Part shown: positions 16,277 to 55,440 of the stretch, piece by piece
Numbering within the stretch: position 1 is the first letter of the stretch
Layout of the letters: every line of letters begins with the position of its first letter
Source of the DNA: Candidatus Yanofskybacteria bacterium
GTDB lineage: Bacteria; Patescibacteriota; Minisyncoccia; 2-02-FULL-40-12; IGHO2-01-FULL-4-A
Direction: 5' to 3'
Length of the DNA: 64,000 bases
NCBI GenBank assembly: GCA_016181175.1
Contig: JACOZV010000001.1
Span: forward strand, 75,778 to 139,777
Notes under the pieces: generated by a model
The model's input: only the letters and a program-made list of their open reading frames with translations
Database searches by the model: none
What the model was told of the DNA's origin: nothing
Made by a program: the position numbers and the translations under genes

Positions 16277-16293
16277 AAAATAATTTTTTAACT

Positions 16294-19200
16294 GTGTCCA
16301 AACATCTAAAAATCATAATATTCTCACTTTTCTTGGTCGCTGGCTTTACTATGAAGTCAGATTTTGCTTCTGCTGCATCCCGTTATTGGGTAGGCGGGGG
16401 ATCATCAACAAACTGGAATGCTACCGGCCCCACTAATTGGTCAGCCACATCAGGAGGAACTAATAATGACACAGTTCCCAATTCTACTGATGATGTTTTT
16501 TTCAATTCCAGTTCCGGTACCGGTAATTCCGTAATTTCTGCATCTATTACCATCAACTCTTTTGATGCTACTGGATATACTGGAACCCTGACCCACAATG
16601 CCAGTGTTACCCTGACGATTTCTGGGAGCGGGGTAGTTTTCAAACTAGCATCGGGGATGACATATACAAAAGGAGGTAATACGAGTTCTGCCCTTTCCTT
16701 TACCGGCACATCGGGTACTACGATGATAACAACAGCAGGGAAGACTATCGGTAAGATAACTTTTAATGGCGTGGGAGGATCATGGCAATTACAGGATGCC
16801 TTAAATGCTGCAGGTACCGCTTCGCAAATTATTTTAACTAGTGGTAACTTTGATTCCAATAATTTTAATGTGACAATGGGATCTTTTGTTTCCAGTAATT
16901 CCAATACTCGTACGCTGACAATGGGATCTAGTACTTGGAAGCTTCAAGATGGCGGAACTATCGTTTGGAATCTCGCAACCGTCACGGGTCTTAGTTTGAA
17001 TGCGGGTACCTCTACGATTGTGATTTCTAGTACGAACGGTAGCGGAAAAACATTCGCTGGTGGGGGACAAACATATTATAATGTTGTTTTTTCGGGGGAC
17101 AATATCAACATTTCGGATTCCAATACTTTTAATAATTTTGCTATTAATAATGCTGGCCTGACAAATGGGTTAGCCTTGGGGGTAGGGAAGACACAGACTA
17201 TTATGGGATCATTTACGACTAATGGATCTGCGGGAAGTTTAGCGATTCTTAAAACTACTACATCGGGTAGTACTGCAACTTTGTCAAAAGCGTCGGGAAC
17301 AGTTTGCGTTGACTACATGAGTATTAAAGACTCAACCGTTAGCGGTGGCGCCTCTTGGTATGCCGGAGCCAACTCCACGAATGTGTCAGGCAATACAGGT
17401 TGGACATTCTCTGCTTGCCCCGGTGGAGACACCACCCCTCCCACAGTTTCAATATCTTCCCCAACAGCAGGATTAACAGTTTCAGGCAATACCACGGTTT
17501 CAGCCACCGCCTCTGATAATGTAGGAGTATCTGGCGTCCAATTCAAATTAGATGGAGTAAATCTTGGAGTAGAAGATATTGACTCCCCATATTCAATAAC
17601 CTGGGATACAACCGCTACTACCGATGGCTCTCATGATCTTACCGCTACCGCTCGTGATGCATCAGGCAATCAAACTACTTCATCTGCCGTGACGGTTACA
17701 GTAAGCAATCCCACCCCTACCCCCACCCCCACCCCCACCCCCACCCCTACCCCCACCCCTACACCTTTGCCGGCAACTGGTATTCCCGTTATTTTCTTTA
17801 CCGATCTTGAGTCGGGTCCCAACACAGGCGGAGAGAACAACAATGGCGCCTTTGTCACAATTTACGGCAAAAACCTTTCCGGCAGTACTGTTACAGTGGG
17901 AGGAGGATCAGCAATTATTAAACTAACCTCAACCCCATATCTCTGGTATGAAAAAATGGCAATTCAATTAGGAGCGAGTACTAATTCTGGCAATATCATA
18001 GTTACTAATGCATATGGCTCATCCAATAACTTACCATTTACTGTGAGAGCGGGTAATGTTTATTGCGTTTCAATGACTGGTGCAGACTCCAATAATGGAA
18101 AATTTACTACCGAAACACCGCCATCAGCTGGCGTACAAGGATGTTGGCTAAATGTATACAAGGCAAAAAATACAATTGCCGCAGGTGACATCGCCTATAT
18201 CCTGGATGGTGCGAACCAGACAACCCCTGAACCAGGAACGGGAGTAGCACTTCAAATTTCTAACGGTGGAAATTTGGGGAATCCGAAGGCTTTGATTGTC
18301 TACCCAGGTGGCACTTCTGTTTTAGGTGCCATAGGTAGCGGCGACTGGGTGGGTTCTGTGGGCGGTATTAAGGTACTGGGGAGTGCCAGCAATGCAGACT
18401 ATATTACCATCGCCGGGTTTACATTCAAAACTTTTAGTAGTGCGCTCTCAATTTCTGGTAACACATATCCCAGCGCACAACACTGGAGATTTATCGGCAA
18501 TTATCTGACCTGTCCCGGGGGTGATGGGCAGTCCGCTTGTGCCTCCCCGGGTTCCATGGAATACCTGGAGTTTTTAGGAAACGAGATTACGGATGCTGGC
18601 TGCAAAGAAGGGGGAACGCAGAATTGTAAACTCATTAGCCCCGCAAACACAATCACGACAGTTGGCACAACACTGACGCTGAGTGGTTTTACTTCTGGCG
18701 TGAATCTCGGTGCTAGAATCTGCGTAACGACCTGCGCATCAGGGCAAGTTCGTCATATCGTAGCGGCTGGACCAAATAACCTAAACTGGATACTCGATAG
18801 CGCATTCACGTCTGATGTTACGGATTCGACATTTCAGTTTCGTTACGGATTAACATCGAAGCAGTACCACTCTGTTTATGTGGATAACAGTGATCACATC
18901 GAAATTGGGTGGAGCTACATCCACAACAATAACTCCTGTCGTGGGATTTTGACCAACTCGACCGGTACAACCGGTGGGCACCAACAGCACGATCTCTCTT
19001 ACCACGACAACATCATTCATCATCAAACCTGTGCCGGAATCGACCTCAACACCGTGGACCCCAATACTGGGCCAGTCGAGGTCTACAACAATTTGATCTA
19101 CCATGTCGGGACAGGGCCAACTCCACATGATGGCATCGGTAATCTTGCGTGCATTTATTCTGGTGATAATAATCGAAGCTCTCCAGGGGCTGGAACAATT

Positions 19201-22200
19201 GAAGTCTACAATAACACACTCTACGATTGCGGTTCCTATAACCCAACTTCAGGCGACAGCGGGGCGATCAATAAGTCTGGTCAAAATGAGAATATTATAA
19301 TAAACCTCCGCAACAATATTATTTTGCAAAATTCAGGAGAGGTTTATATTAAGTCTTCTGGTAACAACAATATCAACGCCCAAGTTACGGGTAGTAAAAA
19401 CCTATTTGCTATGGTTTCTGGTTCGGCTCAAGATTTATCGGGATTTACTGGTCTAACCCCCTACCTCACCCTCGACCCCCTCTTCATCAGCACAACTACC
19501 CCGGATTTCCACCTCCAATCCACCTCTCCCGCCAAAGATGCCGGTGTATTCACCACCGCCCTCTTTGACATTGATGGTATCTCTCGTCCACAAGGAGCAT
19601 CTTTTGATATTGGCGCCTATGAGTATCCATCAGGCGCAGTAGCAGACACAACCTCTCCCACAGTTTCAATAACTTCTCCAACCGACGGCTCAACCCTTTC
19701 CGGCGCTGCCAATACAATAACTGCCAATGCCTCAGATAATATCGGGGTAGTCGGCGTCCAATTCAAAATAGACGGAATCAATCTAGGTTCCGAAGATACA
19801 TCATCCCCATACTCTATTAACTGGGACACCACCACATATACCAACGGCTCTCATACCATAACCGCCGTAGCCAGAGATCCATCCAGCAATACAACAACTT
19901 CTTCAGGAGTCAGCGTAAACGTAAATAATGAAGTGGCTCCAACTCCTCCGGTCATATCTAATGTAACTGCCTCATCTATCACTACTACCGGCGCTACCAT
20001 CACCTGGACTACTGATAAATCATCAGATTCACAGGTGGAATACGGCTTAACCACCAGCTACGGTTCATCTACAACTCTTGATTCAACATTGGTTACCAAC
20101 CACTCAGTTCTATTATCAGGCCTAACATCACAAACAACCTATCATTACAGGGTTAAATCACAGGATACCCCGGGCAACCTAGCCACCTCAGGAGATTTTA
20201 CCTTTACCACCGCCACACCCCCTCCGGTAATCTCAAACGTCCAAGCTACCAATATCACCGCTACCTCTGTAACTATTACCTGGGCTACTGATCGAGCCAC
20301 GACCAGCAAGGTTAACTATGGTTTGACTTCCAGCTATACCAATTCCACGGTTAAAGACACGACTCTGGTAACCAGCCACTCCGTATCCATAGGCGGCCTG
20401 TCTGCTTCTACTCTCTACCACTACCAGGTTGAATCATCGGATTCAGGCAATTTAACTTCCGTTTCTTCCGATGCCACCTTTACCACGGCCGCCTCGGCTT
20501 TACCCGTCATCTCCAATATCCAAGCCACCAACATTACTACAAGCGGAGTCACCATAACCTGGACGACTGACATATCCTCTGATTCGCAGGTAGAATATGG
20601 TACCACCACGGCTTATGGCTCATCCACAACTCTTGACTCCACTCTTGTTACCAGTCACAGCGTTGCCCTAACCGGCCTTTCCGCCGGCACTATATATAAT
20701 TACCGGGTCAAATCCAGCGGAGCGGTTTCAACCAACAAAACCTTTTCAACAACATCGGCTTCCGATACCACCGCCCCCGCCGCGGTTACCAATCTGGCCA
20801 GCACCGGCACAACCAGAACATCCGTTGACTTATCCTGGACTGCTCCAGGCGATGACGGTAATACCGGCACCGCTACTTCCTATGATATGCGCTGGCTGAC
20901 CGTCCCTATAACTGACTCCAACTGGAGTTCCGCCAATATTCTTACCGGTTTGCCTGCGCCAAAAACGGCCGGCACAACCCAGACATATACGGCCATTGGC
21001 TTAACGGCTAACATCACTTACTACTTTGCTTTAAAAACAAAAGATGAAAGCAATAATGTTTCAGCGTTATCAAATGTGATAAGCGCTAAGACCAAAACCG
21101 ATACCGCCACTGGCGGCGGAGGCGGCGGAGCTTCTTCTTTTGACGCCTCGCCCGGGCCGGTTAAGATTTCCAGAATTGGCGAAGCCGACAGTCAGATTCT
21201 GTTAGAATGGCGTAATCCAACCGATGAGGACTTTGTCCGCGTACAAATTGTTGTTAACGAAAACCGCCAACCGTTAAATCAGGATGACGGCAGGATAATA
21301 CTGGAAGAAAACACTACCAAATTCCTCCATGTCAATCTGCGAAACGGCAAAACCTACTATTTTAATATCTACGCCTTGGACTTGGCCAAAAACTTTTCCG
21401 AACCGGTTAAGCTCAAAGCTGTCCCCCAAGAAGGAGTATTATCTTTCGCCGAAAACATAGAGCCGCTTGATGTCGCCCAAACAACCCAATACATTGCCCC
21501 GAAGATAATAACCGAAGAAGACTTCTCCGTTTTCAGGCCAAGGATATTCCCCAAAGCTGTTTTAATCAGATACGCCTTTGATAAGAACGTCTATTACATA
21601 GAAAACGGCAAGAGAAGACTGGTACCCAATTATGCCACCCTCCTTAAACTGACCAATAACAATCCAAACAAGGTTTTAACGGTATTGGATAAAGAACTGA
21701 TAGACGGTTATTCATCTGCCGCTCCTCTTGAAGAAAAAGACATCACCTCTTTATCAAAAGAAATTACCGCCCAATCAGCTTTGGTTAAAACCAAAGACAA
21801 ACCGACTGTCTACCTGGTAAATACAATAGACAAGACCAAACAAACCATTCCCACGCTTGCGGTATTCTATTCCTACGGCTTTTCATTCAAAAACGTATCT
21901 GAAACCAAACAGGAAGACGTGGATGCCCTAACTGAAGCAGGAGAATTAACTCTTAAAACATTTCCAAATGGTTTTCTCATGAAATCTCCCGACAGTTACA
22001 AGGTTTACATAATCCAAGATGGCCAAAAGAGATGGATCAAAACCCTCAAGCTCTTCCTGGGCTTCAAATACATTGATAAAGACGTAACTACCCTGCCTAA
22101 AGAATTAATAGAAGCCTACCCAACAGGATCAGATATTGAAAAGCAGGATGAAACATTACCCAGCAAATTACAAATCAAAGTTCCGGCTACCATCCATGCT

Positions 22201-22437
22201 GACGGCACCCTGGTTAAATTAAAAGATAACTACAAGGTTTACCTTGTAGACAAAACCCAGCTTAAATGGATTGAAACCCAGGAAGAGTTTAAGACCAAGA
22301 AATATAAATTAAAAGACGTGATTGCTATTACCAAGGACGAGTTTGAGTTGTATGGGATGGGGGAGGAAGAACCCATCGAAGAGATAACCACGGGGATAGA
22401 GATGGGAATAATCCCCTCGTCAAGTGAGGGGCAGTAA
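16294..22437 (+). CDS. Giant secreted multidomain surface protein 2 (2047 aa): Ig-like domains, (PT)n linker, parallel beta-helix region, 3x FN3-like domains, 4x C-terminal repeats of about 55 aa
   Basis: Signal peptide MSKHLKIIIFSLFLVAGFTMKSDFASAAS; Ig-like GVSGVQFKLDGVNLG…; PTPTPTPTPTPTPTPTP; three VISN…ITWTTD…YHYRVKS FN3 repeats; C-terminal YKVY…GYxxxxVxx…EL repeats. Confidence 0.75.
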   Translation: MSKHLKIIIFSLFLVAGFTMKSDFASAASRYWVGGGSSTNWNATGPTNWSATSGGTNNDTVPNSTDDVFFNSSSGTGNSVISASITINSFDATGYTGTLTHNASVTLTISGSGVVFKLASGMTYTKGGNTSSALSFTGTSGTTMITTAGKTIGKITFNGVGGSWQLQDALNAAGTASQIILTSGNFDSNNFNVTMGSFVSSNSNTRTLTMGSSTWKLQDGGTIVWNLATVTGLSLNAGTSTIVISSTNGSGKTFAGGGQTYYNVVFSGDNINISDSNTFNNFAINNAGLTNGLALGVGKTQTIMGSFTTNGSAGSLAILKTTTSGSTATLSKASGTVCVDYMSIKDSTVSGGASWYAGANSTNVSGNTGWTFSACPGGDTTPPTVSISSPTAGLTVSGNTTVSATASDNVGVSGVQFKLDGVNLGVEDIDSPYSITWDTTATTDGSHDLTATARDASGNQTTSSAVTVTVSNPTPTPTPTPTPTPTPTPTPLPATGIPVIFFTDLESGPNTGGENNNGAFVTIYGKNLSGSTVTVGGGSAIIKLTSTPYLWYEKMAIQLGASTNSGNIIVTNAYGSSNNLPFTVRAGNVYCVSMTGADSNNGKFTTETPPSAGVQGCWLNVYKAKNTIAAGDIAYILDGANQTTPEPGTGVALQISNGGNLGNPKALIVYPGGTSVLGAIGSGDWVGSVGGIKVLGSASNADYITIAGFTFKTFSSALSISGNTYPSAQHWRFIGNYLTCPGGDGQSACASPGSMEYLEFLGNEITDAGCKEGGTQNCKLISPANTITTVGTTLTLSGFTSGVNLGARICVTTCASGQVRHIVAAGPNNLNWILDSAFTSDVTDSTFQFRYGLTSKQYHSVYVDNSDHIEIGWSYIHNNNSCRGILTNSTGTTGGHQQHDLSYHDNIIHHQTCAGIDLNTVDPNTGPVEVYNNLIYHVGTGPTPHDGIGNLACIYSGDNNRSSPGAGTIEVYNNTLYDCGSYNPTSGDSGAINKSGQNENIIINLRNNIILQNSGEVYIKSSGNNNINAQVTGSKNLFAMVSGSAQDLSGFTGLTPYLTLDPLFISTTTPDFHLQSTSPAKDAGVFTTALFDIDGISRPQGASFDIGAYEYPSGAVADTTSPTVSITSPTDGSTLSGAANTITANASDNIGVVGVQFKIDGINLGSEDTSSPYSINWDTTTYTNGSHTITAVARDPSSNTTTSSGVSVNVNNEVAPTPPVISNVTASSITTTGATITWTTDKSSDSQVEYGLTTSYGSSTTLDSTLVTNHSVLLSGLTSQTTYHYRVKSQDTPGNLATSGDFTFTTATPPPVISNVQATNITATSVTITWATDRATTSKVNYGLTSSYTNSTVKDTTLVTSHSVSIGGLSASTLYHYQVESSDSGNLTSVSSDATFTTAASALPVISNIQATNITTSGVTITWTTDISSDSQVEYGTTTAYGSSTTLDSTLVTSHSVALTGLSAGTIYNYRVKSSGAVSTNKTFSTTSASDTTAPAAVTNLASTGTTRTSVDLSWTAPGDDGNTGTATSYDMRWLTVPITDSNWSSANILTGLPAPKTAGTTQTYTAIGLTANITYYFALKTKDESNNVSALSNVISAKTKTDTATGGGGGGASSFDASPGPVKISRIGEADSQILLEWRNPTDEDFVRVQIVVNENRQPLNQDDGRIILEENTTKFLHVNLRNGKTYYFNIYALDLAKNFSEPVKLKAVPQEGVLSFAENIEPLDVAQTTQYIAPKIITEEDFSVFRPRIFPKAVLIRYAFDKNVYYIENGKRRLVPNYATLLKLTNNNPNKVLTVLDKELIDGYSSAAPLEEKDITSLSKEITAQSALVKTKDKPTVYLVNTIDKTKQTIPTLAVFYSYGFSFKNVSETKQEDVDALTEAGELTLKTFPNGFLMKSPDSYKVYIIQDGQKRWIKTLKLFLGFKYIDKDVTTLPKELIEAYPTGSDIEKQDETLPSKLQIKVPATIHADGTLVKLKDNYKVYLVDKTQLKWIETQEEFKTKKYKLKDVIAITKDEFELYGMGEEEPIEEITTGIEMGIIPSSSEGQ

Positions 22438-22445
22438 GATGACAA

Positions 22446-25400
22446 ATGTTAAATCTAATTTTCCAAAAACTGCTCAAAAAGAAAACGATTGACCGCTTGA
22501 TTCTAGCGGTCAAAAAGTTTATAGCCGGCACGACGATTTTAATGTCGGTGTTTTACGGCACTCTTTATTATGCCCTAGTCACATTAGCTAGCGAAAACGA
22601 ACAAGTTCCCAAACCACTTGTCAGTCAGACAGGAGATCCGACCAGTAATCCCGGCAGATATTATTTAGAGTCTCTTAAAAACAGAGCTGATGAAATTGTC
22701 GGTCTTACCTTTACAAGCCACGATAATTACCAAGAATTTGTTTTCGCTGGCAATAAAATTATTGAGCCAGCATCAATTACTATAAACGACAAACCATACG
22801 TGCCATTCAGATTGCTTTTGTCTTCAAGCAGTAAGGACTACGAAGTTGAACTCAAATCCAAGAAAGGGACGCAAATAATTTCTTTAGCCGGAGATCGTTT
22901 CGAGTATTCTATTTTTGAAAAACAACAAAAAGGTTTTTTGAAATTGGCTTCCGTTAATCCGAAATTTCAAATAAAAAATTGGGGGACCGTGGAAGAACCT
23001 CAGTCAACACCCAGCTGGCAAGATATTATTTTTACAAATCCAGTATCAACCAGTTGGTCAGTATATGACAATTACATAGAAATCAAACAAAATAGCAATT
23101 TTATTACAGGAGAAAAAAATTACAACGCTTGGTTAAAGGTAAAACTTGGTTTTGATAGTTCAGATTATATTAACTCCTGGAATTTCGGCGTATCAGGCCA
23201 GGAAAATATTACACCCGCAGATGAATTTAGAATTAGACTGCAGACTGTGCTTGCGGGTAAAATCAAACATCAGACAAATGATAGCGGTAACTTGGAAGTT
23301 GGTATAGAGAATCCAAAAAGTAATACAGCTGAGGATGTCATAGATTTGGACAATTTATTTCTAAATCCAACGGCTTCGGTATCTCAAACGCCGAGTATAT
23401 TACCAGAAGCTACGGTCGGTTCGATACCAGTGGAACCAGAAGTAACTCAATTACCAAGCGCCACCACAGAACCTTCGCTGATTTCGACACCCGAGCCGTC
23501 TCTTACTCCGGCTGCATCTGTGTCAGAATCGGGCAATGAAGCAAGCCCTTTGTCTGAAGAACAAGAGACGATCCCGACTCCGCATTTTGAGATTACTTCA
23601 ACCCCATCCAGCGAGAGTCCAGCCCTAGAATCAATACCGGAGCAGACGCCGGAGCCGATTACTACGTCCCTGCCGGAAACTACTGGCAATCAAGACGAAA
23701 CCACGCCTGAACCAAGCCCCACCTCGCTATTAAATAAATTCTTTGGAATCAATATTGTAAATGCAGAAGAAGTGACAGAGCAACCAGTAGAAGCAAGCAT
23801 AGACCCGGTCATTATACCAGAAAATACAACTAATCCAGTCTCCGAAATACAAGAGCCTACTTTGTCGGAAACTGATACCGATGAAACTGCGAATTCTATT
23901 ATAGCGGAACCGATACTCCAACCACTGATTGAGGGTGCTTCAAGTATTATTAATCAAGTTACCGATAGTTTAACTAATTTTGCAGAAAGTCCGAGTATAT
24001 CATTGCCGACTTTGGAACCGGAGACAGTTTCTAACAGCGAGCCGGTAACTATTTTTGAAGAACCTATTGTTGCAAGCTCAGATCTTTCGGAGCCCCCCCA
24101 AAAGCCGCAATCAATTCCAGCCCAAATTGCAAACGTATTAAATAGTTTGAATCTTTTTTCTGTTACTCAAACCACCATTTCTGAATTAAATTTTGGTTTA
24201 GGAGACGAGGGTGGGAGCAATCTCCAGATAGATGAGAATAATAACATCCTAACAACAGAGGTAAGTTTGAATTCCAGCAACAACGGGGTTTCAGTTATAC
24301 TTTCAGATATCGGTGTGGCCGTTTATAACACCGGTATCTGGATAGCTTCGGGCGATGGCAGTAAATCAACAGATTTCAAACTTCACTTCAATTCCAGCTA
24401 CGGCGGCGCGATTGATGAGTTGTATCTTGGCACCGACTTTCATACCAACAAAGTGGCGACTCCGCAGGCAGGATCGGGGGGGCTGACATTGATTGAGCAG
24501 GATCATTTTTCCCAAGCGGAAACCAGAAGTTCAACCCTGGAAGTGATTGAGCAATCCAAGGTCAGGATAGTCATAGACAACACCTTTAGACTTGGCCCGG
24601 AGGCTGGCATAGCCGAAAAGTGGTCAATTTATGCCACCGGCCGGATAATAAAACAAACGATTTTTGATAAATATAAAACTGGCGAGGAAAGGTGGTATCT
24701 CAATGCTGCCAAAACCGGTTTTGATTTATCAGCGGGTTATAACTACAATCAGCTGATTTTAAACACCAAACTGGAACCCAATTCCAAAGACCTGATGTTG
24801 GTTTGGCAAAATCCAAGTTTGTTGACCTCTTCTTCTTTTGAGGCAGGCGAAACGGATAGTTCATATACAACCGTTGCGAAATTAAACCGTCAGCCGTGGA
24901 CCTATACTGAATACCAAATGATTGATTTGATGCAAGAGGATTTGAGCATGATTGATAAAACCTCAATAGATGAAAGAGCGAATGATTATCGCAATCCCGA
25001 CAATCCAGAATTCACGGTCGGCAGTTTCAGAAAGGTCAATCAGCAATATTTTTCTTATGAAATGGATTCGGCCGGCAGTAAAAATCATGTAGTATTCAAA
25101 ATGGACGGTTCACAAATCGCAAGATTCCATCCGGTATTTGAAATTCACGAATGGAACAACCCAGACCTTAGCGCAATCAGATCATACATGAACCAGAAAA
25201 ATATGGTTGAGAATCGTGACTATATTGTTGATTTCAGGAATAGTGATCCCGGCACTGGTATTTTGATATTCCACTTTCTTGGCACAGTACGCACCAATTC
25301 AGAATTAAGCGCTGACGGGTTTGTAACTTTTGATATTGATCCGGAGGTTACTCCGGGTTCGGGGATACTGGCTTATGGAGGAGGGAATATGCAGACAAGT

Positions 25401-27908
25401 TTTGTGACTACCGATGCTACAGGAAATAACTTGGGAGCTTTTGCCAGCGTTTCAGCGAGCACATTTAATCCGTTTTGGGTGGTTAATCGTGCCAGTCCGG
25501 TTGGCGGTAGTCAGGCCTCCGGTTCGGACAATGAACACTTGGTAGGCGACCTTAACGGCACTGGCAATCTTGAGATGCTGCGCTGGAACGGTACCGCTTG
25601 GGCGTTGGATTGGACGGAAAACAATGTTGGTTCACAATCGCTTGATGTAAGAGCGTATGATATTGCTTATGAAAATAGCGGTGAAGCGGTGGCGGCTTGG
25701 TCCCAAACTAACGATACAACTGGTCTTATTGAATACAGAGTTTGGAATGGGATTAGTTGGGGAGCGTCAACAAGCTTCACCGTGCCGACCACAAACAAGA
25801 TTGCTTGGATTGAAATGGCATCACACCCAGCCAGCGGTTCAAATCAAAATGATATTGGACTCTGCTATGTTACCGGCGGATTGAACGAAACCGGTTGTGC
25901 AGTCTGGAATGGGACTACAAATACCTGGGGCAATGCGGTGCTTAGAGAAAGCGATTCATTAAATAATAGAAAATCCGTTTCAGTATTTTACGAGCAAAGC
26001 TCTGGAGATCTTATAGAAATTTCGGGTATAGAACATACCACAAATGGTGGTGGTGTGGTTTTGACCTATTCAAGTTGGGATGGCTCAAGTTGGACGGCAA
26101 CATCCTCTTTCAGTAGCGGCAGCGGAACGGGGGATAGTGCCAATGATCTTAGTTGCGCTCCAGCTCCTTTTTCGCTCAACGGCACGACTACGAAGAATAA
26201 GGCGGTATGCCTTGCTTATGATGGTTTTGCAGATGACGTGTGGTCGTTTATATGGGACGGTTCGGCGCCTAACAACGAGAATTCAAATACTACAACAAGT
26301 ACTGTTGCCGCCGGTTTACTTATTTCTGGCGGAGTCAATTGGATTATTGATACGAGAGCTATGGGGCTAATTATTATCAATGTTAGTGCGGGCAGCAACC
26401 AAGTTGATTATGAGTACTGGGATGATACTGCTGGCGCTTGGACGCTAAATCAGACATTTACGCATACCACTGGTACTAAAAGAAGTTTTCAGGTTGAACC
26501 AAATCCAAACCAGAAAAACACGGCAACAGTTCTTATAAGTGACAATAATACCAATCTCTTTGCTTATGAAGCCAGTGTCAGCGAAACCACAGTTACTTTT
26601 AATAACTTGAATAATGGTAATGCAATAACTCAAGATTTAACGAATGTTGGCAAAAACCAAGCATTTATGATGGCCTACGACCTATTCCCCAACCCTACCC
26701 AGACGCATTTCCAATGGTTGAATGACGATGCGGGGTTGAACTCTGGGACTGCGGCTGCCGCCCAGGATGCGACATTAACGGGATTAACAAACGGTTCAGT
26801 TAAGAGATTGAGGGTTGAGATTTCAAACGAAGGCGCAGGGAGCAAAAGCAGTAATTTCCAGCTGGAGTTTGCCAAAAAAGGTTCTGGTTGCACTCAAGCT
26901 ACGCTTTCCGCCGGTTGGAATTACAGGGAGATACATACTGATTCGGTAACTGCTTCAGACGCTTTTGATATACAAGATTCAACCAACTTCAGCAATGGGG
27001 CGGCGACAACAGCATCATTGAGTGCCAGCGACCCTACCTTTGTAGCGGGTCAAGGCATAGATTCCGCATCATCCACCAGCGCCATTGCTTTGAATGGCAA
27101 TAACTATACCGAGATTGAATATGCTTTGCAGGCGAATACCAACGCCCAGTCCACGACTACCTATTGTTTCCGCTTGACTGATGGCGGGGCGAGTACTTCG
27201 TTCACTTATCAGAGATATGCGGAGGTTCAGACGGGGACGATTGGAGTTTCCGTTCCAACCTATACCGAAGATTTCTTCAGGTTCTATATAAATGTTGACA
27301 ATATTTCTCCAACCGATCCTTGGCCAACTAGCTCTAATGATTTAGCCGAAAACGCCACAATGTCAGCGCATTTTGCAAGCATTGCCAGCGGCAGTATTAT
27401 GCGTTTGCGAACCAACATGTTAGTGGGAACGGCTACTCTAAATGCCGCCTCGCAAACATTCCAACTGCAATATGCGGAAGGATTCAACTGCGGAGCATTA
27501 TCCGGTGGCAGTTGGGCTTCAGTAGGGGCGTCTACAAGTAATACAATCTGGCGATTTGGATCTAATGGAAGCGTAACTGACGGCACGGCCCTATCAAGCG
27601 GCGGCACCCTTTTATCCAATTCTGATAATGGCGCGCGAGCTACCTACGAAGAGGGCAATCCATCAGCAGTCAATCCCAATGCCGTAACCAGCGGCCAGCG
27701 CATGGAACACGACTGGTCTGTTCAAAATAATGGTGCCGTATCCGGCGCGGCATATTGTTTTCGTATTATCCGTAATTCCGGTACAACCCTCGAAACCTAT
27801 AACAGGTATCCTCAAGTAATACTAGGCCCGTCAACCGACCAGATTTTACGCCACGGTGCTTTCTTCAGCGAAGGAGTTGAGCAAGGGTATTACTGGTCAG
27901 GAATTTAG
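22446..27908 (+). CDS. Giant membrane-anchored surface protein 3 (1820 aa): mucin-like S/T/P/E-rich stalk and C-terminal repeated jelly-roll-like modules
   Basis: N-terminal TM helix FIAGTTILMSVFYGTLYYALVTL; about 150-aa low-complexity TEPS region; repeated C-terminal modules ending …YCFRL…YQRY / …YCFRII…YNRY. Confidence 0.7.
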   Translation: MLNLIFQKLLKKKTIDRLILAVKKFIAGTTILMSVFYGTLYYALVTLASENEQVPKPLVSQTGDPTSNPGRYYLESLKNRADEIVGLTFTSHDNYQEFVFAGNKIIEPASITINDKPYVPFRLLLSSSSKDYEVELKSKKGTQIISLAGDRFEYSIFEKQQKGFLKLASVNPKFQIKNWGTVEEPQSTPSWQDIIFTNPVSTSWSVYDNYIEIKQNSNFITGEKNYNAWLKVKLGFDSSDYINSWNFGVSGQENITPADEFRIRLQTVLAGKIKHQTNDSGNLEVGIENPKSNTAEDVIDLDNLFLNPTASVSQTPSILPEATVGSIPVEPEVTQLPSATTEPSLISTPEPSLTPAASVSESGNEASPLSEEQETIPTPHFEITSTPSSESPALESIPEQTPEPITTSLPETTGNQDETTPEPSPTSLLNKFFGINIVNAEEVTEQPVEASIDPVIIPENTTNPVSEIQEPTLSETDTDETANSIIAEPILQPLIEGASSIINQVTDSLTNFAESPSISLPTLEPETVSNSEPVTIFEEPIVASSDLSEPPQKPQSIPAQIANVLNSLNLFSVTQTTISELNFGLGDEGGSNLQIDENNNILTTEVSLNSSNNGVSVILSDIGVAVYNTGIWIASGDGSKSTDFKLHFNSSYGGAIDELYLGTDFHTNKVATPQAGSGGLTLIEQDHFSQAETRSSTLEVIEQSKVRIVIDNTFRLGPEAGIAEKWSIYATGRIIKQTIFDKYKTGEERWYLNAAKTGFDLSAGYNYNQLILNTKLEPNSKDLMLVWQNPSLLTSSSFEAGETDSSYTTVAKLNRQPWTYTEYQMIDLMQEDLSMIDKTSIDERANDYRNPDNPEFTVGSFRKVNQQYFSYEMDSAGSKNHVVFKMDGSQIARFHPVFEIHEWNNPDLSAIRSYMNQKNMVENRDYIVDFRNSDPGTGILIFHFLGTVRTNSELSADGFVTFDIDPEVTPGSGILAYGGGNMQTSFVTTDATGNNLGAFASVSASTFNPFWVVNRASPVGGSQASGSDNEHLVGDLNGTGNLEMLRWNGTAWALDWTENNVGSQSLDVRAYDIAYENSGEAVAAWSQTNDTTGLIEYRVWNGISWGASTSFTVPTTNKIAWIEMASHPASGSNQNDIGLCYVTGGLNETGCAVWNGTTNTWGNAVLRESDSLNNRKSVSVFYEQSSGDLIEISGIEHTTNGGGVVLTYSSWDGSSWTATSSFSSGSGTGDSANDLSCAPAPFSLNGTTTKNKAVCLAYDGFADDVWSFIWDGSAPNNENSNTTTSTVAAGLLISGGVNWIIDTRAMGLIIINVSAGSNQVDYEYWDDTAGAWTLNQTFTHTTGTKRSFQVEPNPNQKNTATVLISDNNTNLFAYEASVSETTVTFNNLNNGNAITQDLTNVGKNQAFMMAYDLFPNPTQTHFQWLNDDAGLNSGTAAAAQDATLTGLTNGSVKRLRVEISNEGAGSKSSNFQLEFAKKGSGCTQATLSAGWNYREIHTDSVTASDAFDIQDSTNFSNGAATTASLSASDPTFVAGQGIDSASSTSAIALNGNNYTEIEYALQANTNAQSTTTYCFRLTDGGASTSFTYQRYAEVQTGTIGVSVPTYTEDFFRFYINVDNISPTDPWPTSSNDLAENATMSAHFASIASGSIMRLRTNMLVGTATLNAASQTFQLQYAEGFNCGALSGGSWASVGASTSNTIWRFGSNGSVTDGTALSSGGTLLSNSDNGARATYEEGNPSAVNPNAVTSGQRMEHDWSVQNNGAVSGAAYCFRIIRNSGTTLETYNRYPQVILGPSTDQILRHGAFFSEGVEQGYYWSGI

Positions 27909-28702: not shown

Positions 28703-29254
28703 TTGCTAAGTTTATACTCTATGCAGGAAATAAAAGAAAAAGCAGGTAATTCCTATCAGCAGGAATTTTTTATAAGTCCCTCGCGCGGTCAACGCGAATT
28801 TTTGGATATAATAAGCGATATAACCGATTTTGTTAATGAAGATCCGTTGAGCAAATACGTTGTTGTCGTTGGCACCGACTCTGAGGAAACGATAACGCCC
28901 AACGGGCATGCCGGCCTTGCCAATTTTGTCAGCGTGATTACTGTTCATCGCGTGGGCAGGCACGGCAGATATTTTTGGAAAAAAATCTCTGATGTTAAAA
29001 CATTTGATAGGCACGATAGGATGCTGAAGGAGGCGTATTATTCATTGGAACTTGCGCAAAGAGTTGTTGCTCATTTGCGCGAAAAACTAAATGATCGATT
29101 GTACGATTTTGAAATCCATCTTGATATCGGCAATAACGGCCCGACCAAAACTATGATTCAGGAAATAGTCGGCATGATTACAGGTAATGGCTTCACGGCT
29201 CGTATCAAACCCGATTCATATGCGGCGAATAAGGTTGCGGACCGGCATGTGTAG
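28703..29254 (+). CDS. Hypothetical protein, possibly a DUF458 / YkuK-like RNase H-fold protein
   Basis: 183 aa; blocks VVVGTDSEE and GLANFVSVITVHRVG; assignment by memory only. Confidence 0.35.
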   Translation: MLSLYSMQEIKEKAGNSYQQEFFISPSRGQREFLDIISDITDFVNEDPLSKYVVVVGTDSEETITPNGHAGLANFVSVITVHRVGRHGRYFWKKISDVKTFDRHDRMLKEAYYSLELAQRVVAHLREKLNDRLYDFEIHLDIGNNGPTKTMIQEIVGMITGNGFTARIKPDSYAANKVADRHV

Positions 29255-29308
29255 TAATTTTTAATTTTTAATTTTTTAATTTTATAAATAAACTCTAAAT
29301 CTAAAACA
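29254..29308. repeat. Left arm of the AT-rich palindromic hairpin repeat (family A), interrupted by the 4HB gene
   Basis: AATTTTTAATTTTTAATTTTTTAATTTTATAAATAA matches the 5' arm of copies at 37306, 55441 (inverted) and 62394. Confidence 0.7.
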
Positions 29309-29644
29309 ATGAAATATGATCTTGAAGAAAGGTGTGCGAAATTTGGTGAAAATATAATTTTATTTTTGAGTGGTTTAAAAAAAGATGAAATTAATCGGCC
29401 GCTTGTTGGCCAACTGATCAGATCGGCTACAAGTATCGGTGCCAATTACATGGAAGCAAATCAGGCTGCATCCAAAAAAGATTTTATTAATAAAACAAGA
29501 AATAGCCAAAAAGAAGCTAATGAGAGCAAGCATTGGCTAAGAATGATTGCTGTTGCTTCGCCGAATCACAAAGAAAGTTGTAGAAAACATTGGCAAGAGG
29601 CCCATGAGTTGACGTTAATTTTTGCCAAAATTAGCAAGAGTTAG
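29309..29644 (+). CDS. Four-helix-bundle protein of the 23S rRNA intervening-sequence protein family (TIGR02436-like; Avd-like fold)
   Basis: 111 aa; DLEERCAKFGENIILF…VGQLIRSATSIGANYMEANQAASKKDFINK…ESKHWLRM matches the S23p/4HB family consensus. Confidence 0.8.
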   Translation: MKYDLEERCAKFGENIILFLSGLKKDEINRPLVGQLIRSATSIGANYMEANQAASKKDFINKTRNSQKEANESKHWLRMIAVASPNHKESCRKHWQEAHELTLIFAKISKS

Positions 29645-29654
29645 TTTTTGAACC

Positions 29655-29707
29655 CTTTTAAACATTAAGATTTATTTAAAAATTATAAAATTACAAAATT
29701 AAAAATT
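29655..29707. repeat. Right arm of the AT-rich palindromic hairpin repeat (family A)
   Basis: AAACATTAAGATTTATTTAAAAATTATAAAATTACAAAATTAAAAATT matches the 3' half of the 37306..37410 copy. Confidence 0.7.
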
Positions 29708-30754
29708 ATGGTCAACGCAATTTATATTTTTGCTAGTTTAATCGTTGGCGCCCTATTTGTTCTAGTCGTTTTTAAGTCGAGTAAGCATTCAAAGGATGAT
29801 CAAGGTTTACAGACGATCAATCAGCGTTTAGACACTCTTAGTGTTTCAATGAATCAAGCTTTACGGGACACGGTGAAAATGGTGGCCGATCAGCTCAAAG
29901 ATAGCCGCGAGTCGGTGGAGAGGTCATCGCTGGCAGTCAATCAACAGGTGCAGGGGTTTACTACGGGTCTGACGCAGTTGAGTGAAAATCTTAAAAGCGT
30001 GCACGAGAGCGTGAAAAACGTTTCCTCTTTTCAAGATATTTTCAAAGCGCCCAAACTTCGCGGTATTTGGGGTGAAGCATCGCTTGAAGCATCGCTGGCG
30101 CAGTATTTTCCCAAGGATCGCTATGAAATTCAGCATTACTTCAAATCGGGTGAAGCCGTGGATGCTGTTTTGAGACTGCCTAACGATTTAATTTTGCCGA
30201 TTGACTCCAAATTCAACTGGGAAAATTTTGAGAAGATGGTAAATTCCGATAATGATATCGCGCGCGAACAATACAAAAAAACATTTTTGTCTGATGTGAA
30301 GAAAAAAATTGACGAGATCGCATCCAAGTATCTTTTGCCGTCAGAGGGCACGACTGATTTTGCCTTGATGTATGTGCCGGCAGAAACGGTTTATTATGAG
30401 GTTGTAAATAATATCAAAGATGTTGATTTGCCGGCTTATGCTTTGAGCAAAAAAGTTTTTTTGGTTTCACCTAATACGTTTATGTTGTCGGTTTCGGCGA
30501 TCGGGCACTGGCTCAAAGATGTCCAGCTCAATAAGCAGACCAAAGATATAATGAAGCGGTTGGAGCGCATAGCTCTTGATGGTCGCAAGTTGGGTGATGA
30601 CTTCAAACGGCTGGGAAAACACTTATCTGACGCTCGCGGATCTTATGATGATTCGGAAAAGCGGCTTACACTCATGGTAGATCGCGTGCAGAATGTGGTT
30701 GAGCTTGAGGATGGCAAGGGGGATGGCAAAAATGAGGGGAATCTGTTAAATTAA
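29708..30754 (+). CDS. rmuC: DNA recombination protein RmuC
   Basis: N-terminal TM, coiled coil, conserved RmuC C-terminal block (…FALMYVPAETVYYEV…VSPNTFM…). Confidence 0.8.
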   Translation: MVNAIYIFASLIVGALFVLVVFKSSKHSKDDQGLQTINQRLDTLSVSMNQALRDTVKMVADQLKDSRESVERSSLAVNQQVQGFTTGLTQLSENLKSVHESVKNVSSFQDIFKAPKLRGIWGEASLEASLAQYFPKDRYEIQHYFKSGEAVDAVLRLPNDLILPIDSKFNWENFEKMVNSDNDIAREQYKKTFLSDVKKKIDEIASKYLLPSEGTTDFALMYVPAETVYYEVVNNIKDVDLPAYALSKKVFLVSPNTFMLSVSAIGHWLKDVQLNKQTKDIMKRLERIALDGRKLGDDFKRLGKHLSDARGSYDDSEKRLTLMVDRVQNVVELEDGKGDGKNEGNLLN

Positions 30755-35799: not shown

Positions 35800-36128
35800 T
35801 TTACAAGTGGTTTATCCAGCTTCACTTTTGGTTTATGATGACTTTATGTGGATAGTTTATATTATTCAGAACAATCTAACTGAAAAAATATATATTGGCT
35901 GTACAAATGATCTCAAGAAACGAGTCGAAAAGCATAACAGCCAAACAAATAAAGGTTATACAAGACGACTTATCGGTCAATGGATTTTGATATACGCGGA
36001 AGCTTATAGAAGCAAAGAAGATGCTTTTCGACGGGAGTCAAAACTCAAAGACCACGGTAGTTCTAAACATGAATTGAAGAAGAGAATCAGCAATTCATTG
36101 TTAAAACCAAAAGTGAGGCTGGATTAAG
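35800..36128 (+). mobile_element. Stem-bounded intervening sequence in the 23S helix-25 region carrying a GIY-YIG ORF
   Basis: 19-bp stem CCAGCTTCACTTTTGGTTT (35816-35834) / AAACCAAAAGTGAGGCTGG (36104-36122) enclosing the ORF; inserted between …GAATGATCCAACGAG and GGATAAGCCCGTATAGGG…GGAAACCGAGTG. Confidence 0.65.
35846..36127 (+). CDS. GIY-YIG nuclease-family protein (YhbQ/UPF0213-like) encoded inside the 23S IVS
   Basis: WIVYIIQNNLTEKIYIGCTNDLKKRVEKHN…YTRR…WILIYAEAYRSKEDAFRRESKLK is a GIY-YIG motif set; an alternative GTG start lies at 35807. Confidence 0.7.
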   Translation: MWIVYIIQNNLTEKIYIGCTNDLKKRVEKHNSQTNKGYTRRLIGQWILIYAEAYRSKEDAFRRESKLKDHGSSKHELKKRISNSLLKPKVRLD

Positions 36129-36624: not shown

Positions 36625-37305
36625 CAGCTTACTGCTCGAATTCTAATTTCGGTTAGACGAGGAAAGTGGCGCCGAAGATTCAACGGGGCTAAGCATAGTA
36701 CCGAATGCGTGGACCGTCCCGATTTATCGGGATGAGTGGTAGGGGAGCACTTCAAGCCGCTGCGAAGGTGTGTCGTGAGGCATGCTGGAGCGCTTGGAGG
36801 AGAGAATGTTGGAATGAGTAACCACAAGCGAGGTGAGAACCCTCGCCGCCGTAAGCCTAAGGTTTCCTCCGCAATGTCAATCACCGGAGGGTTAGGCGAC
36901 GCTAAGGATAACCGTGCCTACGGGCATGGGAAGCCGATGCTAAGCCGGTTAATATTCCGGCCCTTCCATATGTATTGATGGAGCGACGGAGGATATAAGC
37001 TGGAGCAGATTATTGGATTTCTGTTTTTGGATTCCAGGATTGTCGTTTGGAAAATCCGGCGACTGACTTTAATGTCAAAATACGAATTTGAAGAAATCAC
37101 GGGTAACCGTGGGATTCCAGTGAAGAGCCTTCCAAGAAAAACTTCTAAAATTATGCATATGGGAAACGTACTTAAAACCGACACAGGTGGGCTAGTGTAA
37201 GTGCACTAAGGCGAACGGGTGATTATTGGCTAAGGAACTCGGCAAAAAAGTGGCCGTACCTTCGGTATAAGGCCTACCTGACCGTGCCTCACTGCGTTCG
37301 GCACG

Positions 37306-37410
37306 AATTTTTAAATTTTTAATTTTATAATTTTAATAAATAATTTCTAATGTTTAAAAATTAAAAACATTAAGATTTATTTAAAAATTAAAAATTGGAA
37401 ATTAAAAATT
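37306..37410. repeat. AT-rich palindromic hairpin repeat (family A), full ORF-less copy inserted in a variable 23S helix near the helix-63 region
   Basis: AATTTTTAAATTTTTAATTTTATAATTTTAATAAATAATTTCTAATGTTTAAAAATTAAAAACATTAAGATTTATTTAAAAATTAAAAATTGGAAATTAAAAATT; arms are mutual reverse complements; central mini-hairpin TAATGTTT/AAACATTA; flanked by 23S exon sequence. Confidence 0.75.
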
Positions 37411-37632
37411 CTAACAAGCCGAGCATAGCGAGGCGCGGTTGGGTCGCAGCTAACGAACCCCTGGCGACTGTTTATCTAAAACACAACTCTGTGCTAAGCC
37501 GAAAGGCGCTGTATACAGGGTGACGCTTGTCCAGTGCTGGAACGTTAACGGTGGAGGTGGTATGCAGCAATGTGTATTGCCAACGCCCGAAGCGCCAGTG
37601 AACGACGGCGATAACTATAATCGTCCAAAGGT

Positions 37633-38949
37633 TTTGAGAATTTGTCAGATGGCAAGTTCTCAAAAGGACTTGGCCGATTGTAGTGAATTTATATTGATAA
37701 ACAAAAGTAGCTGCCTATCGCGTGACGAAAGTTTTACGCGATGTCTTAAAATATATTCGATCATATGCTGGAAAGTCTGAGTATCCACAACTACTATGGT
37801 ATGATGTTACCTTTGGTGATAAAATATATCTATGCCAAGTAAAAATGTTAGTGGTGCAGACGATCAGCAGGAAAGTCTGAAAATGATGGGTTGGATAACA
37901 GGTTTTGTTGATGGGGAAGGATGTTTTACTGTCAGTATATTCAAGAATTACAAAGCTCAACGCAAGCTCGGATGGCAAGTATTCCCTGAGTTTGTAGTTT
38001 CCCAAGGAGAGAAGAGCTTGAGCGTTCTCGAACTGATCAAGAACTACTTCAACTGTGGTTATATAATAAAAAATAAAAGGAACGATAACCACCACGAAGA
38101 TATGTTCAAATACTGTGTGAGATCTTTGTCGGATCTAGAAACCAAAATTGTGCCATTCTTTACCCAAAACAAACTCCTAACCGCAAAGCGAAGAGATTTT
38201 ATAATCTTTAAGGAAATCCTAAAAATGATGGGTCGCAAGGACCACCTTAACCTTAAAGGACTTAGAAAAATTGCCTCTCTAGCTTTGCAGATGAATCGTA
38301 AAAAAAGACCCAAGTTTTCAGAAATCCTCAGAGACTAAACGTCGAACCCGCTCAAATTTTTGGACTTAAATAAAAAAAACCTCAACTGAGGTTTCGATGA
38401 ATTTGCTATTAATAATCAATTATAGGAGCTTGTTCGTGCCGCTTATCTATACCTTTAAATCTACTGTCGGTACGGATTTTCCTAATGGTATTTCGTGGTA
38501 ATTCACATTGAATCAGCATAATATCATTGTTTCTGAGTTTAACATTAAATTCTACTATGCCATATTCTATAAAATATATAATAAGAGATGCTACCCAGCG
38601 TACATGAACACGAAGAGTTAATTTTTCCATGAATTTTCCACCTTTCTTTTGTGATTTAAAATGAACTTTGAAATGCAACACCAATAAACTAAATGTTTAC
38701 TGGTTTGCCCTACTCGCCCTGATTTGTAAAAGGATGAGGAAAATAAGGATAACCCTTTACTTTACTCGTCTTTTAGCTGATTTTTATTGTAAAATAAGGA
38801 CAAATCAGATGTTGCACTTCGGGGGTAAATGCGAGCGAAGAAACCCAGTGGTAAGTATAAATCAATTAAAATTTAGTGTCAATAGTCCAAAAATTTGAGC
38901 GGGAAGATATAGTCCGAACTGCATGGCGACATGCAGAGTAACATACTTA
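37633..38949 (+). mobile_element. Intron in 23S at the E. coli ~1917 site (CCAAAGGT | AGCGAAATTCC) carrying a LAGLIDADG homing-endonuclease gene
   Basis: Exon junction reconstitutes AAGGTAGCGAAATTCC; 1317-nt insert; internal 19-bp long-range pairing CCCGCTCAAATTTTTGGAC / GTCCAAAAATTTGAGCGGG; 3' motif GAACTGCATGGCGACATGCAGAG shared with the insert at 39499. Confidence 0.7.
37832..38338 (+). CDS. LAGLIDADG homing endonuclease (single-motif, I-CreI-like), intron-encoded
   Basis: 168 aa; MMGWITGFVDGEGCF LAGLIDADG motif. Confidence 0.8.
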   Translation: MPSKNVSGADDQQESLKMMGWITGFVDGEGCFTVSIFKNYKAQRKLGWQVFPEFVVSQGEKSLSVLELIKNYFNCGYIIKNKRNDNHHEDMFKYCVRSLSDLETKIVPFFTQNKLLTAKRRDFIIFKEILKMMGRKDHLNLKGLRKIASLALQMNRKKRPKFSEILRD

Positions 38950-39441: not shown

Positions 39442-39498
39442 CTTCCTAGGGTTACATCAAGACAGTGCCTGGTGGGTAGTTTAACTGGGGCTGTTGCC

Positions 39499-39995
39499 TT
39501 AACGCGGTATTCGTTACACCGCATGGGGCCTACTGAAAGTAATTTCAGTATGCAAATTCGACTATATGCTGGAACCCCCGCGCATATCTGAATACTCTAC
39601 TTAGTAGCTGAGCTACTAAGTAAGTGAAAATTTTGGATCGATGCGGACAATCAGCAGGGAAGTTCTTCAATTAAATTCAGGACCCCTCAACGACTGTACG
39701 TCGAGTGCCGCGAAGCGGCAATGATACAGTCTGAACTGCATGGCGACATGCAGAGCTGGGCAGAAATGACCCGGCCGCCTATAAAATTTGGTTTTTTAAG
39801 GCCATGTTTTATGGGAAGGGTTTAGCGAATAATGCCTTATAGCACCGTTGAAGCTGTGCGATTGCACGGTTTGCGAGCAGTATAATTTTTCACTGCGAGT
39901 AAAATCCACAGATTCAACGGAGCGTAGCAACCTCGCTGGGGTTGCAAGCGGTGATAGAAGGTATTATTCGCTAAACCTGCAAAGTAACACAATTG
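39499..39995 (+). other. ORF-less structured insertion (intron or IVS) in 23S between GGGGCTGTTGCC and CCTAAAGAGTAACGGAGG
   Basis: About 497 nt with no ORF of 60 aa or more; contains GTCTGAACTGCATGGCGACATGCAGAG, near-identical to the 3' motif of the 37633..38949 intron, and a 20-bp internal stem GGTTTAGCGAATAATGCCTT / AAGGTATTATTCGCTAAACC. Confidence 0.5.
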
Positions 39996-40250: not shown

Positions 40251-40769
40251 TTTTAATCGACTTTTTAACTGTTTGAGCCCGAGGAAAAGACATCAAAATA
40301 TAAATCACGGCGCAATAATATAGGAATATATTATTGACTGCTAACTTATATCGGTAAAACCCATTCGGTAAACTCGGGGTAATACCGAGAGAAGTTATTT
40401 GTTCAAATTTTTGGAAAAATAAAAAAGACCCTATTGGGTCATGTAAAATATGGCAAATGGTAAGGTAATGGCTAAAACAAATTGAAAGCGACAGAGACCA
40501 TCAGTATAGATTTTTTTGAAAGATCCAAGGGCTATAAGAGAGTTAAAAATCCAGAAAATAAGCATTAAAACCAGAGATATTAGCAGTTGTTGGGAGTTCA
40601 TTATTGCCTCCTAAATTAAATATAATTGATTATTAAATTATTGTCAATACCCAATTAATTTGACTCCAAAAATTTGAACAAATAACACTCGTAGAGACTA
40701 AATGTTAGCCATCCAATCTGCCAATCAGTGGAGGATGAAGTTATGGTCCAATGCACATAGTAATATGTG
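40251..40769 (+). other. ORF-less insertion in 23S after CACCTCGATGTCGGCTCGGC (E. coli ~2510 region); boundaries unresolved
   Basis: About 500 nt without an ORF; internal long-range pairing TTGTTCAAATTTTTGGAAAAAT / GACTCCAAAAATTTGAACAA resembles the module in the 37633..38949 intron; exon resumes near GAAACATGCGTGAGACAGGTTGGTCC. Confidence 0.4.
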
Positions 40770-40840
40770 GAAACATGCGTGAGACAGGTTGGTCCTTATC
40801 TGGTGCGGGCGTTGAAGTTTGAGGGGGGTTGTCCCTAGTA

Positions 40841-55430: not shown

Positions 55431-55440
55431 GCTTGGGTGA

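Follow-up and report, generated by a model that had tools for sequence, protein, structure and literature searches.

An IVS-type, MITE-like palindromic cassette with a four-helix-bundle gene in Candidatus Yanofskybacteria and its ORF-less relatives in 23S rRNA and essential operons

Intervening sequences (IVSs) of rRNA are known from Leptospira and Coxiella burnetii, where they carry an S23p or four-helix-bundle (4HB) open reading frame (ORF) (PMC4990558). RNase III cuts the IVSs that contain such an ORF between inverted repeats; a mobile-element hypothesis was put forward for them in 1993, but both their origin and the role of the 4HB ORF are still called unclear (PMC4990558). ORFs of PF05635, the Pfam profile by which Avd-like proteins are recognised (PMC10053308), were also found in 22 rRNA insertions of the candidate phyla radiation (CPR) (PMC11270868). 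We analysed a 64,000-nt stretch of contig JACOZV010000001.1 (hereafter the window; GC 42%), from a metagenome-assembled genome (MAG) of Candidatus Yanofskybacteria, a CPR bacterium, and found a family of AT-rich hairpins that is an IVS-type palindromic cassette resembling miniature inverted-repeat transposable elements (MITEs). The one family occurred in three states, ORF-less in rRNA, ORF-less in essential operons, and ORF-carrying outside rRNA, and the 30-year-old idea of rRNA IVSs as mobile elements thereby becomes testable. Its members in the window were the following.

29255-29308, plus strand: left arm of the ORF-carrying cassette, (AATTTTT)n heptamers and then TAAATAA
29309-29644, plus strand: gene for the 4HB protein (111 amino acids, isoelectric point (pI) 9.5)
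29645-29707, plus strand: right arm of the ORF-carrying cassette, with AAACATTAAGATTTATTTA and then (AAAATTA)n
37306-37410, plus strand: ORF-less copy in the 23S rRNA gene (blastn, Rfam)
55440-55540, minus strand: ORF-less copy between ssb and rpsR (blastn)
62394-62481, plus strand: decayed ORF-less copy in the rpsS-rplV spacer (blastn)

The original prediction, made from the letters of the window, had described AT-rich copies of about 100 bp at 37306-37410, 55441-55540 and 62394-62481, and had placed them inside 23S, between ssb and rpsR, and between rpsS and rplV. Both the sequences, up to 97.9% identical, and the contexts were confirmed, the first by Rfam and the second on the minus strand. 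In blastn, the 23S copy matched 55440-55534 on the opposite strand with 97.9% identity over 97 nt (E 2e-42) and matched 62394-62481 in two blocks (97-98%, E 4e-19 and 5e-9) with an internal deletion of about 8 nt between them. It also matched the flanks of the ORF, in 26/26 nt at 29660-29685 and in 24/25 nt at 29263-29287. Based on blastn, the hairpins of the operons thus form one family with the rRNA insert that lacks an ORF and with the unit that carries one, as had been proposed. A profile built from the short copies (nhmmer) matched four loci in the window and no others, and the predicted fifth locus was dropped: the arm-like match at 42292-42307, beside the 5S gene, was only 16 nt and too short to call, and 59236-59257 was a conserved motif of the rpsJ-rplC spacer, also present in the relative L045, and not a copy. 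Since the arms were 90-98% A+T and repetitive, the likeness could be ascribed to chance among AT-rich low-complexity spacers. This explanation was refuted by E-values reaching the one above, by a core common to the copies (CTAATGTTTAAAAATTAAAACATTAAGATTTATTTA) that is not low-complexity, and by inverted-repeat scores that beat all 200 composition-matched shuffles, and its probability is practically nil.

The inverted arms that had been claimed were found in both forms. The arms of the ORF cassette (29255-29305 and 29665-29708) were inverted repeats with 80-82% complementarity, and those of the 23S copy (37305-37341 and 37375-37411) were 76% complementary. Units of 7-8 nt made up each arm, AATTTTT in the left one and AAAATTA in the right one, and the A/T-only sequence makes the register of pairing ambiguous. 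At the apex of the short form, a small hairpin (TAATGTTT...AAACATTA) joined both arms. Folded as RNA together with the flanking rRNA, the 23S copy had a predicted free energy of -37.8 kcal/mol (z -7.6), and the ssb-rpsR copy had one of -24.4 kcal/mol (z -5.3); the rpsS-rplV copy, with half of the apical mini-hairpin deleted, was hardly above shuffles (z -1.5). For the arms around the ORF, long-range pairing was predicted over about 45 positions (arm cofold -21.6 kcal/mol), with the ORF in the loop. The prediction that the same arms flank the gene, as if it sat in the loop of the element, was thus supported by the matching flanks and by the pairing. All four window copies were sense to the host transcripts. 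Reading the hairpins as terminators was rejected, as they had no U-tract and a terminator within 23S is implausible, and reading them as promoters was rejected because promoter-like matches stood at shuffle level (3 versus 2.7 expected).

The short form consisted of the left arm of the long form through TAAATAA(T)TTCTAA and of its right arm from AAACATTAAGATTTATTTA on. The 19-nt apex between the two arms made the short form a near-perfect palindrome, and the same apex was present in short copies of several genomes, which suggests that the short form is one deletion derivative that was then multiplied, and not the product of repeated ORF losses. Short, non-coding, multicopy and bounded by terminal inverted repeats, the ORF-less copies (three in 64 kb, 88-105 nt, arms of about 37 nt) have the make-up of MITEs. 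MITE-like palindromes of operons include the Correia/NEMIS elements of Neisseria, ERIC/IRU of enterobacteria, REP/BIME, and the Rickettsia palindromic elements. The present family resembles them in its length of about 100 nt, its several near-identical copies, its long RNA hairpins, and its placement between the genes of operons and occasionally inside genes or RNA genes. It differs in that the arms are tandem heptamers and that the only ORF-bearing relative codes for a 4HB protein instead of a transposase or RAYT. Correia elements are cleaved by RNase III and duplicate a TA target, whereas here no target-site duplication was present.

The 4HB protein was examined by profile search and by structure prediction. 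It scored 52.2 bits against PF05635 (curated cut-off 33.8; E 7.7e-14) and 69.1 bits against TIGR02436 (curated cut-off 24; E 3.4e-19), and matched PDB entry 2RLD by sequence (2.5e-12). The AlphaFold2 (AF2) monomer model had a pLDDT of 95 and contained four helices. With Foldseek, the model reached template-modelling (TM) scores of 0.83-0.87 to 2RLD and 0.84 to 2GSC, and of 0.66-0.75 to Avd (4DWL, 8UBE; probability 0.99), with an identity of only 10-12%. The predicted assignment to a TIGR02436-like protein with an Avd-like fold was therefore upheld. Like the Avd proteins of diversity-generating retroelements, the product is a basic four-helix bundle (pI 9.5) of PF05635; unlike them, it had no reverse transcriptase, template or variable repeat nearby at the eight cassette loci described below, and no RVT domain was present among the called neighbours there. 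Homologues numbered 5,575, and the best 120 of these were 68-85% identical to the window protein, with Falkowbacteria, Moranbacteria, Microgenomates and Minisyncoccia among the source names.

Close homologues (63-81% amino-acid identity) were encoded at eight independent loci (the window, L017, L025, L035, L047, L048, L050 and L055), and we compared the surroundings of the gene at each. The same inverted AATTTTT-heptamer arms surrounded it in 8/8, with the left consensus AATTTTTAATTTT(N)TAATTTTT..TAAATAA and the right consensus TTATTTA..AAAATTA(N)AAAATTAAAAATT, and at every locus the inverted-repeat score exceeded all 200 composition-matched shuffles. The linker between arm and ORF was also common, TAAATAAATCTTAA in L055 being the exact complement of TTAAGATTTATTTA. 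All eight cassettes were intergenic, and both neighbours were co-directional in 7/8; for L055/L056 the upstream neighbour lay 287 nt away, on a strand that was unresolved. The co-directional neighbours were these.

RNaseH-like gene and rmuC (window)
trpE and trpG (L035)
T2SSF gene and pilin gene
PfkB gene and AdoHcyase gene
trigger factor gene and epimerase gene
NDK gene and an unknown gene
large ORF without a Pfam hit and gene for a hypothetical protein

The GC content, tabulated for every locus except L055, was lower in the cassette (0.26-0.40) than in the flanks (0.35-0.53) in all seven cases, and one host had 52% GC, its other sequence not being AT-rich. The contig of L035 was at least 1.8 Mb long and contained trp genes, an SLH protein and IS elements; judging from its length, the trp genes and the SLH domain, its host does not look like a CPR genome. 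Between cassettes, the rate of non-synonymous substitution (dN) was 0.12-0.30, and that of synonymous substitution (dS) was saturated or not computable, which indicates that the 4HB protein is functional and under purifying selection. Identity at four-fold sites was 0.24, and that of the left arms was 0.86 compared to 0.67 +/- 0.06 for shuffled arms, a value somewhat inflated by the anchored extraction of the arms. Since the arms were conserved although neutral sites were randomised, the arm sequence itself, and not just its ability to pair, is under constraint. Together, arms and ORF form a conserved cassette over many candidate-phyla lineages, and selection acts on arms and protein alike. 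The protein here is under strong purifying selection, unlike S23p of Coxiella, which is believed not to be produced. The right arm of L048 (2843-2963) was interrupted by a GC-rich palindrome (ACCGCCTAATGGCGGGGTCCCGCC...GAGGCGGGAT) and resembles one spacer element nested in another.

These loci also bear on the alternative that the 4HB gene is the mobile part, which inserts in the loops of pre-existing AT-rich hairpins, so that the arms would not belong to the cassette. The window ORF does stand exactly in place of the apical part of the short form, and short copies outnumbered ORF copies. Yet the arms accompanied the ORF in all eight loci, over varied lineages and contexts and even in the host of 52% GC, and the arm-ORF linker was shared as well, as in the complementary pair from L055. 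We regard insertion of the gene alone as very unlikely. Carriage by phages was rejected: the core pattern had no hits in viral contigs, where close relatives of the protein were also lacking, phage records gave just two weak protein hits, and the only matches of a second arm pattern were to a simple repeat and to coding DNA in a phage of 24% GC.

Distant homologues, 35-39% identical, were located inside operons on cyanobacterial plasmids. In L052 (Nostoc plasmid NZ_CP040299, 27283-27639), the 4HB gene lay between cas2 and cas1 and was flanked by inverted repeat arms of an AAAAGT type (score 63 versus a shuffle maximum of 30), the distal arm overlapping the annotated 3' end of cas1. A distant 4HB gene was also present beside cas1 in L054, on a Pseudanabaena plasmid. 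Such cas-embedded genes may explain the reported association of the domain with CRISPR adaptation modules.

At the 23S site, an insert of 144 nt, which contains the ORF-less copy, takes the place of a 3-nt apical loop at positions 1752-1778 of the large-subunit (LSU) model (Rfam local alignment). The rRNA hairpin that bears it, the next after the CGUACCUUCGG hairpin, is assigned to helix 63. The insertion thus replaces the loop of an rRNA helix, as IVSs do, and Rfam gave no match to an intron model at 37306-37410, unlike other sites in the same 23S gene. In the predicted fold, the rRNA halves flanking the AT-rich unit still paired, which argues against an assembly artefact. Compared to the CPR rRNA insertions on record (group I/II introns, LAGLIDADG/GIY-YIG; PMC11270868), the insert lies in the same 23S gene, PF05635 ORFs being on record for 22 such insertions, but it is a hairpin with no intron-model match and no homing endonuclease, and it has copies outside rRNA. 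The IVSs of Leptospira and Coxiella share with this family the PF05635/TIGR02436 protein, an ORF that forms the loop between paired terminal inverted repeats, the replacement of an rRNA helix loop, a GC content below that of the host, and suspected horizontal transfer. The differences are that the ORF unit here lies in a protein-coding operon and not in rRNA, that the rRNA copy is ORF-less and sits in helix 63 rather than 9, 25 or 45, and that the A/T-only heptamer-array arms are conserved across many lineages. No ORF cassette inside rRNA was found among the loci retrieved.

The 23S copy could instead be a retained expansion segment on the variable surface helix 63, kept in the mature rRNA and not an IVS. 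Helix 63 bears the expansion segment ES27 in eukaryotes, and a related 23S (L046, 3405-3729) carries a different stem-loop of about 300 nt with a small ORF at the same tip. Helix 63 is moreover outside helices 9, 25 and 45, in which IVSs are common, whereas a near-perfect duplex of about 45 bp is the kind of RNase III substrate found in known IVSs (PMC4990558). We consider retention possible, at somewhat less than an even chance; it touches one step only and is compatible with a mobile cassette. The small ORF of the L046 insert coded for 63 amino acids, lacked a Pfam hit, and lay between CCTCAGGATTACCATGTAGCAG and CTGCTACTTGGTAATTCTGAGG. On the window side, the GC-rich rRNA-side flank of the element (37418-37435, GCCGAGCATAGCGAGGCG) had a single 18-nt match to a spacer repeat of the ribosomal operon of L045 (10952-10969), and the helix-63 insert may be composite, an element nested within an element.

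The other copies were positioned at the boundaries of genes. In the ssb-rpsR copy, the stop codon of ssb (55535-55533) lay within the first arm, which provides the last codon and the stop. The window SSB (55533-56111, minus strand) ended in ...DSDIEEKEIL and that of L045 (893-1432) in ...DSDIEEKEIDLKDIPF; the window protein was without the C-terminal DLKDIPF of the L045 SSB, and no trace of the tail was present downstream. Seven codons at the end of ssb, those of the DIPF tip among them, have therefore been replaced by the element. This tip is where SSB binds partner proteins. No second SSB domain was detected in the neighbouring ORF at 56786-57181 (no Pfam hit). The window offers a natural SSB without a C-terminal tip. 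The rpsS-rplV copy occupied the spacer from the stop codon to the Shine-Dalgarno sequence; the claim that it splits the S10 operon was not borne out, in that it fills an intergenic spacer and leaves the genes unsplit. The ORF cassette followed the TAG codon that closes the RNaseH-like gene (28703-29254) without a gap and ended at the ATG of rmuC (29708).

Elsewhere, the 24-25-nt core pattern was found at two loci in other Patescibacteria MAGs and at 12 metagenome loci. These short copies were in unrelated contexts, nearly all of them 3-15 nt from the ends of flanking ORFs, and none lay in an RNA gene detectable by Rfam. With respect to their neighbours, nine short copies across genomes were sense, five were antisense and two lay between convergent genes. 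Presence and absence at one site were compared for the rpsS-rplV spacer. The closest relative found (L044, L22 79% identical) had an empty, plain 19-nt spacer, L012 (L22 67% identical) had an intact copy of the element, and L045 (L22 73% identical) had an unrelated hairpin. The element is thus present at this site in the window and L012 but not in L044, a presence/absence polymorphism as in MITEs. The site is dynamic, and the window copy was either gained or has survived where other genomes lost theirs.

The hairpins of L045, which the original prediction had missed, brought in a host function as an alternative. In this second Yanofskybacteria genome (GCA_016185545, 568-17827, S10/spc operon), hairpins were present in many spacers, including rpsS-rplV and ssb-rpsR, and their arms were different tandem heptamers: (AACCTGT)n, (AACTGGT)n, (TATAACC)n, (AGCTATC)n and (AACTAGA)n. 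A GC-rich repeat family of about 150 nt was also present in L045, at 8038, 12442 and 13595. In the window, tsaD (5087-6181, minus strand) contained at 5727-5804 the adjacent heptamer arrays (AGTAGTG)x5 and (TTTTGAN)x5, in frame and between positions 103 and 104 of the TsaD Pfam profile, a repeat insertion in an essential gene. From the spacers of L045 and of the window and from tsaD, heptamer-repeat hairpins are a general feature of the spacers of this clade, which suggests that some factor recognises the heptamer periodicity and keeps in play a host function in which transcripts are punctuated or stabilised.

On such a host-function account, the hairpins would be host RNA signals that punctuate polycistronic transcripts for processing or stability, are kept by selection and are homogenised in each genome. 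The 4HB protein would then serve to bind them, the 23S copy would have arisen as a by-product, and the spread of cassettes would be secondary. In its favour are the heptamer hairpins of other sequence in many S10/spc spacers of L045, the further structured spacer families of the window, the conservation of arm sequence despite saturated synonymous sites, and the sense orientation of all four window copies. On the other hand, the closest relative found has a plain rpsS-rplV spacer, one copy removed the C-terminal tip of SSB, orientation is mixed in other genomes, and the cassettes are foreign in GC, with one host genome that is not CPR-like. Weighing these, we find a host signal unlikely as the primary explanation.

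We favour the reading that the hairpins are probably a horizontally spreading family of AT-rich palindromic (foldback) cassettes, moving within and between genomes, with MITE-like ORF-less derivatives. The full form would be a promoter-poor unit of about 450 bp, made of a left AATTTTT arm of about 45 nt, a gene for a 4HB protein of 111-125 amino acids and a complementary right AAAATTA arm, and the ORF-less form of about 100 nt would be a deletion derivative that multiplied on its own. Both persist where they would do least harm, between the genes of operons, at the 3' ends of genes and, in rRNA, on the apex of a surface helix. Once transcribed, the arms would form an A-U/G-U duplex of about 45 bp, which by analogy with classical IVSs could be cut by RNase III. 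Within 23S, cutting would excise the hairpin and leave a fragmented, functional rRNA, or else the hairpin would be tolerated as an expansion; within mRNA, the cistrons would be cut apart and the 4HB transcript set free. The basic Avd-like protein might, speculatively, bind its own arms as RNA or DNA and aid the maintenance or movement of the cassette, and the absence of duplications would fit, again speculatively, a single-strand, hairpin-dependent (HUH-type) or a recombination-based movement. If true, this would account for the occurrence of orphan "four helix bundle protein" genes, in their thousands, among neighbours that have nothing in common, cas1 and cas2 being one such pair. It also suggests a broader class of cassettes that carry a 4HB gene but no transposase. 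A search of the accessible literature found no description of conserved AT-rich heptamer arms, of operon cassettes outside rRNA, or of ORF-less derivatives common to rRNA and mRNA sites.

Several results weigh against the spreading cassette. No target-site duplication was visible at any copy: the flanks CACG/CTAA, AGAG/CACC, GTAA/TAAGG and GTAG/ATGG had no repeat, the AT-rich ends leaving an ambiguity of 1-2 nt. No transposase, recombinase or reverse transcriptase was found inside or consistently beside the cassette at the eight loci, and the autonomous, transposase-coding relative expected of a MITE was absent there, as the sole ORF-bearing relative encodes the 4HB protein. The 23S copy is known from one assembly only, the sole independent (Logan) contig found starting downstream, and its helix is not a common IVS helix. 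The unrelated hairpins of L045 in the same two spacers raise the possibility of host features rather than parasites. Mixed orientation weakens a purely RNA-level role, and the sense-strand stability advantage (G-U bias) was seen in only two near-identical copies and was absent in the ORF copy and the decayed copy, so that it does not prove selection at the RNA level. In part, moreover, the conserved core seen in short copies is an ascertainment effect of the search pattern. The original prediction had called the family direct evidence that IVSs transpose. The spread of the family stands, given the arms in 8/8 loci, the empty rpsS-rplV spacer of the closest relative found, and the low GC of the cassettes; "direct evidence" was overstated, as no target-site duplication, transposase or mechanism was found.

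A broader version joins the tandem-heptamer hairpins and a putatively pentameric Avd-like 4HB protein in one system, for this clade and possibly for all scattered PF05635 genes, in which the protein would recognise its own heptamers, as RNA or as folded single-stranded DNA, and drive either the copying of the cassette or the punctuation of polycistronic RNA, with classical rRNA IVSs as one landing site of a transposase-less class. The distant homologue of Nostoc, between cas2 and cas1 and with different inverted arms, would fit such a system, which we nevertheless hold to be decidedly improbable as a whole.

Other structured spacers were noted in the window. A second palindromic family was present at 51232-51350, 56050-56128, 56757-56835 and 59927-60050, with the termini CCCGTACGAGACAG...CTGTCTCGTACGGG. 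Two of its copies, of 79 nt each and inverted with an 86% match, lay upstream of genes, one of ssb and the other of the divergent ORF at 56786, and yielded spurious N-terminal extensions of these ORFs (MIYSDK.FPVSYGMN). A perfect 21-bp GC-rich hairpin followed tuf (58573-58617), a perfect 24-nt palindrome crossed the stop codon of rpsJ (58952-59002), and the rpsJ-rplC spacer was 347 nt long and highly structured (-106 kcal/mol). The operons concerned were rpsF-ssb-rpsR, on the minus strand, and the start of the S10 operon, on the plus strand.

With two LAGLIDADG ORFs and three group I intron matches, the 23S gene itself extended over about 7.3 kb, which is typical of CPR rRNA genes; a GIY-YIG ORF interrupted it as well. 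The rRNA features were located as follows.

from 35000: 23S rRNA gene (Rfam)
37832-38338 and 40994-41473: LAGLIDADG ORFs in 23S
38760-38936, 39472-39753 and 40589-40770: group I intron matches in 23S (Rfam)
at 42316: 5S rRNA gene

The GIY-YIG ORF (PF01541, 1e-17) belonged to an insertion of about 339 nt at 35807-36127, which was flanked by a 24-nt inverted repeat with 92% complementarity (35811-35834 and 36104-36127), a stem-plus-ORF architecture that resembles an IVS. Upstream of the cassette locus, at 12824-27908, there were three successive giant ORFs of 1150, 2047 and 1820 amino acids, and their counterparts in the Logan contig L003 had zero Pfam hits.

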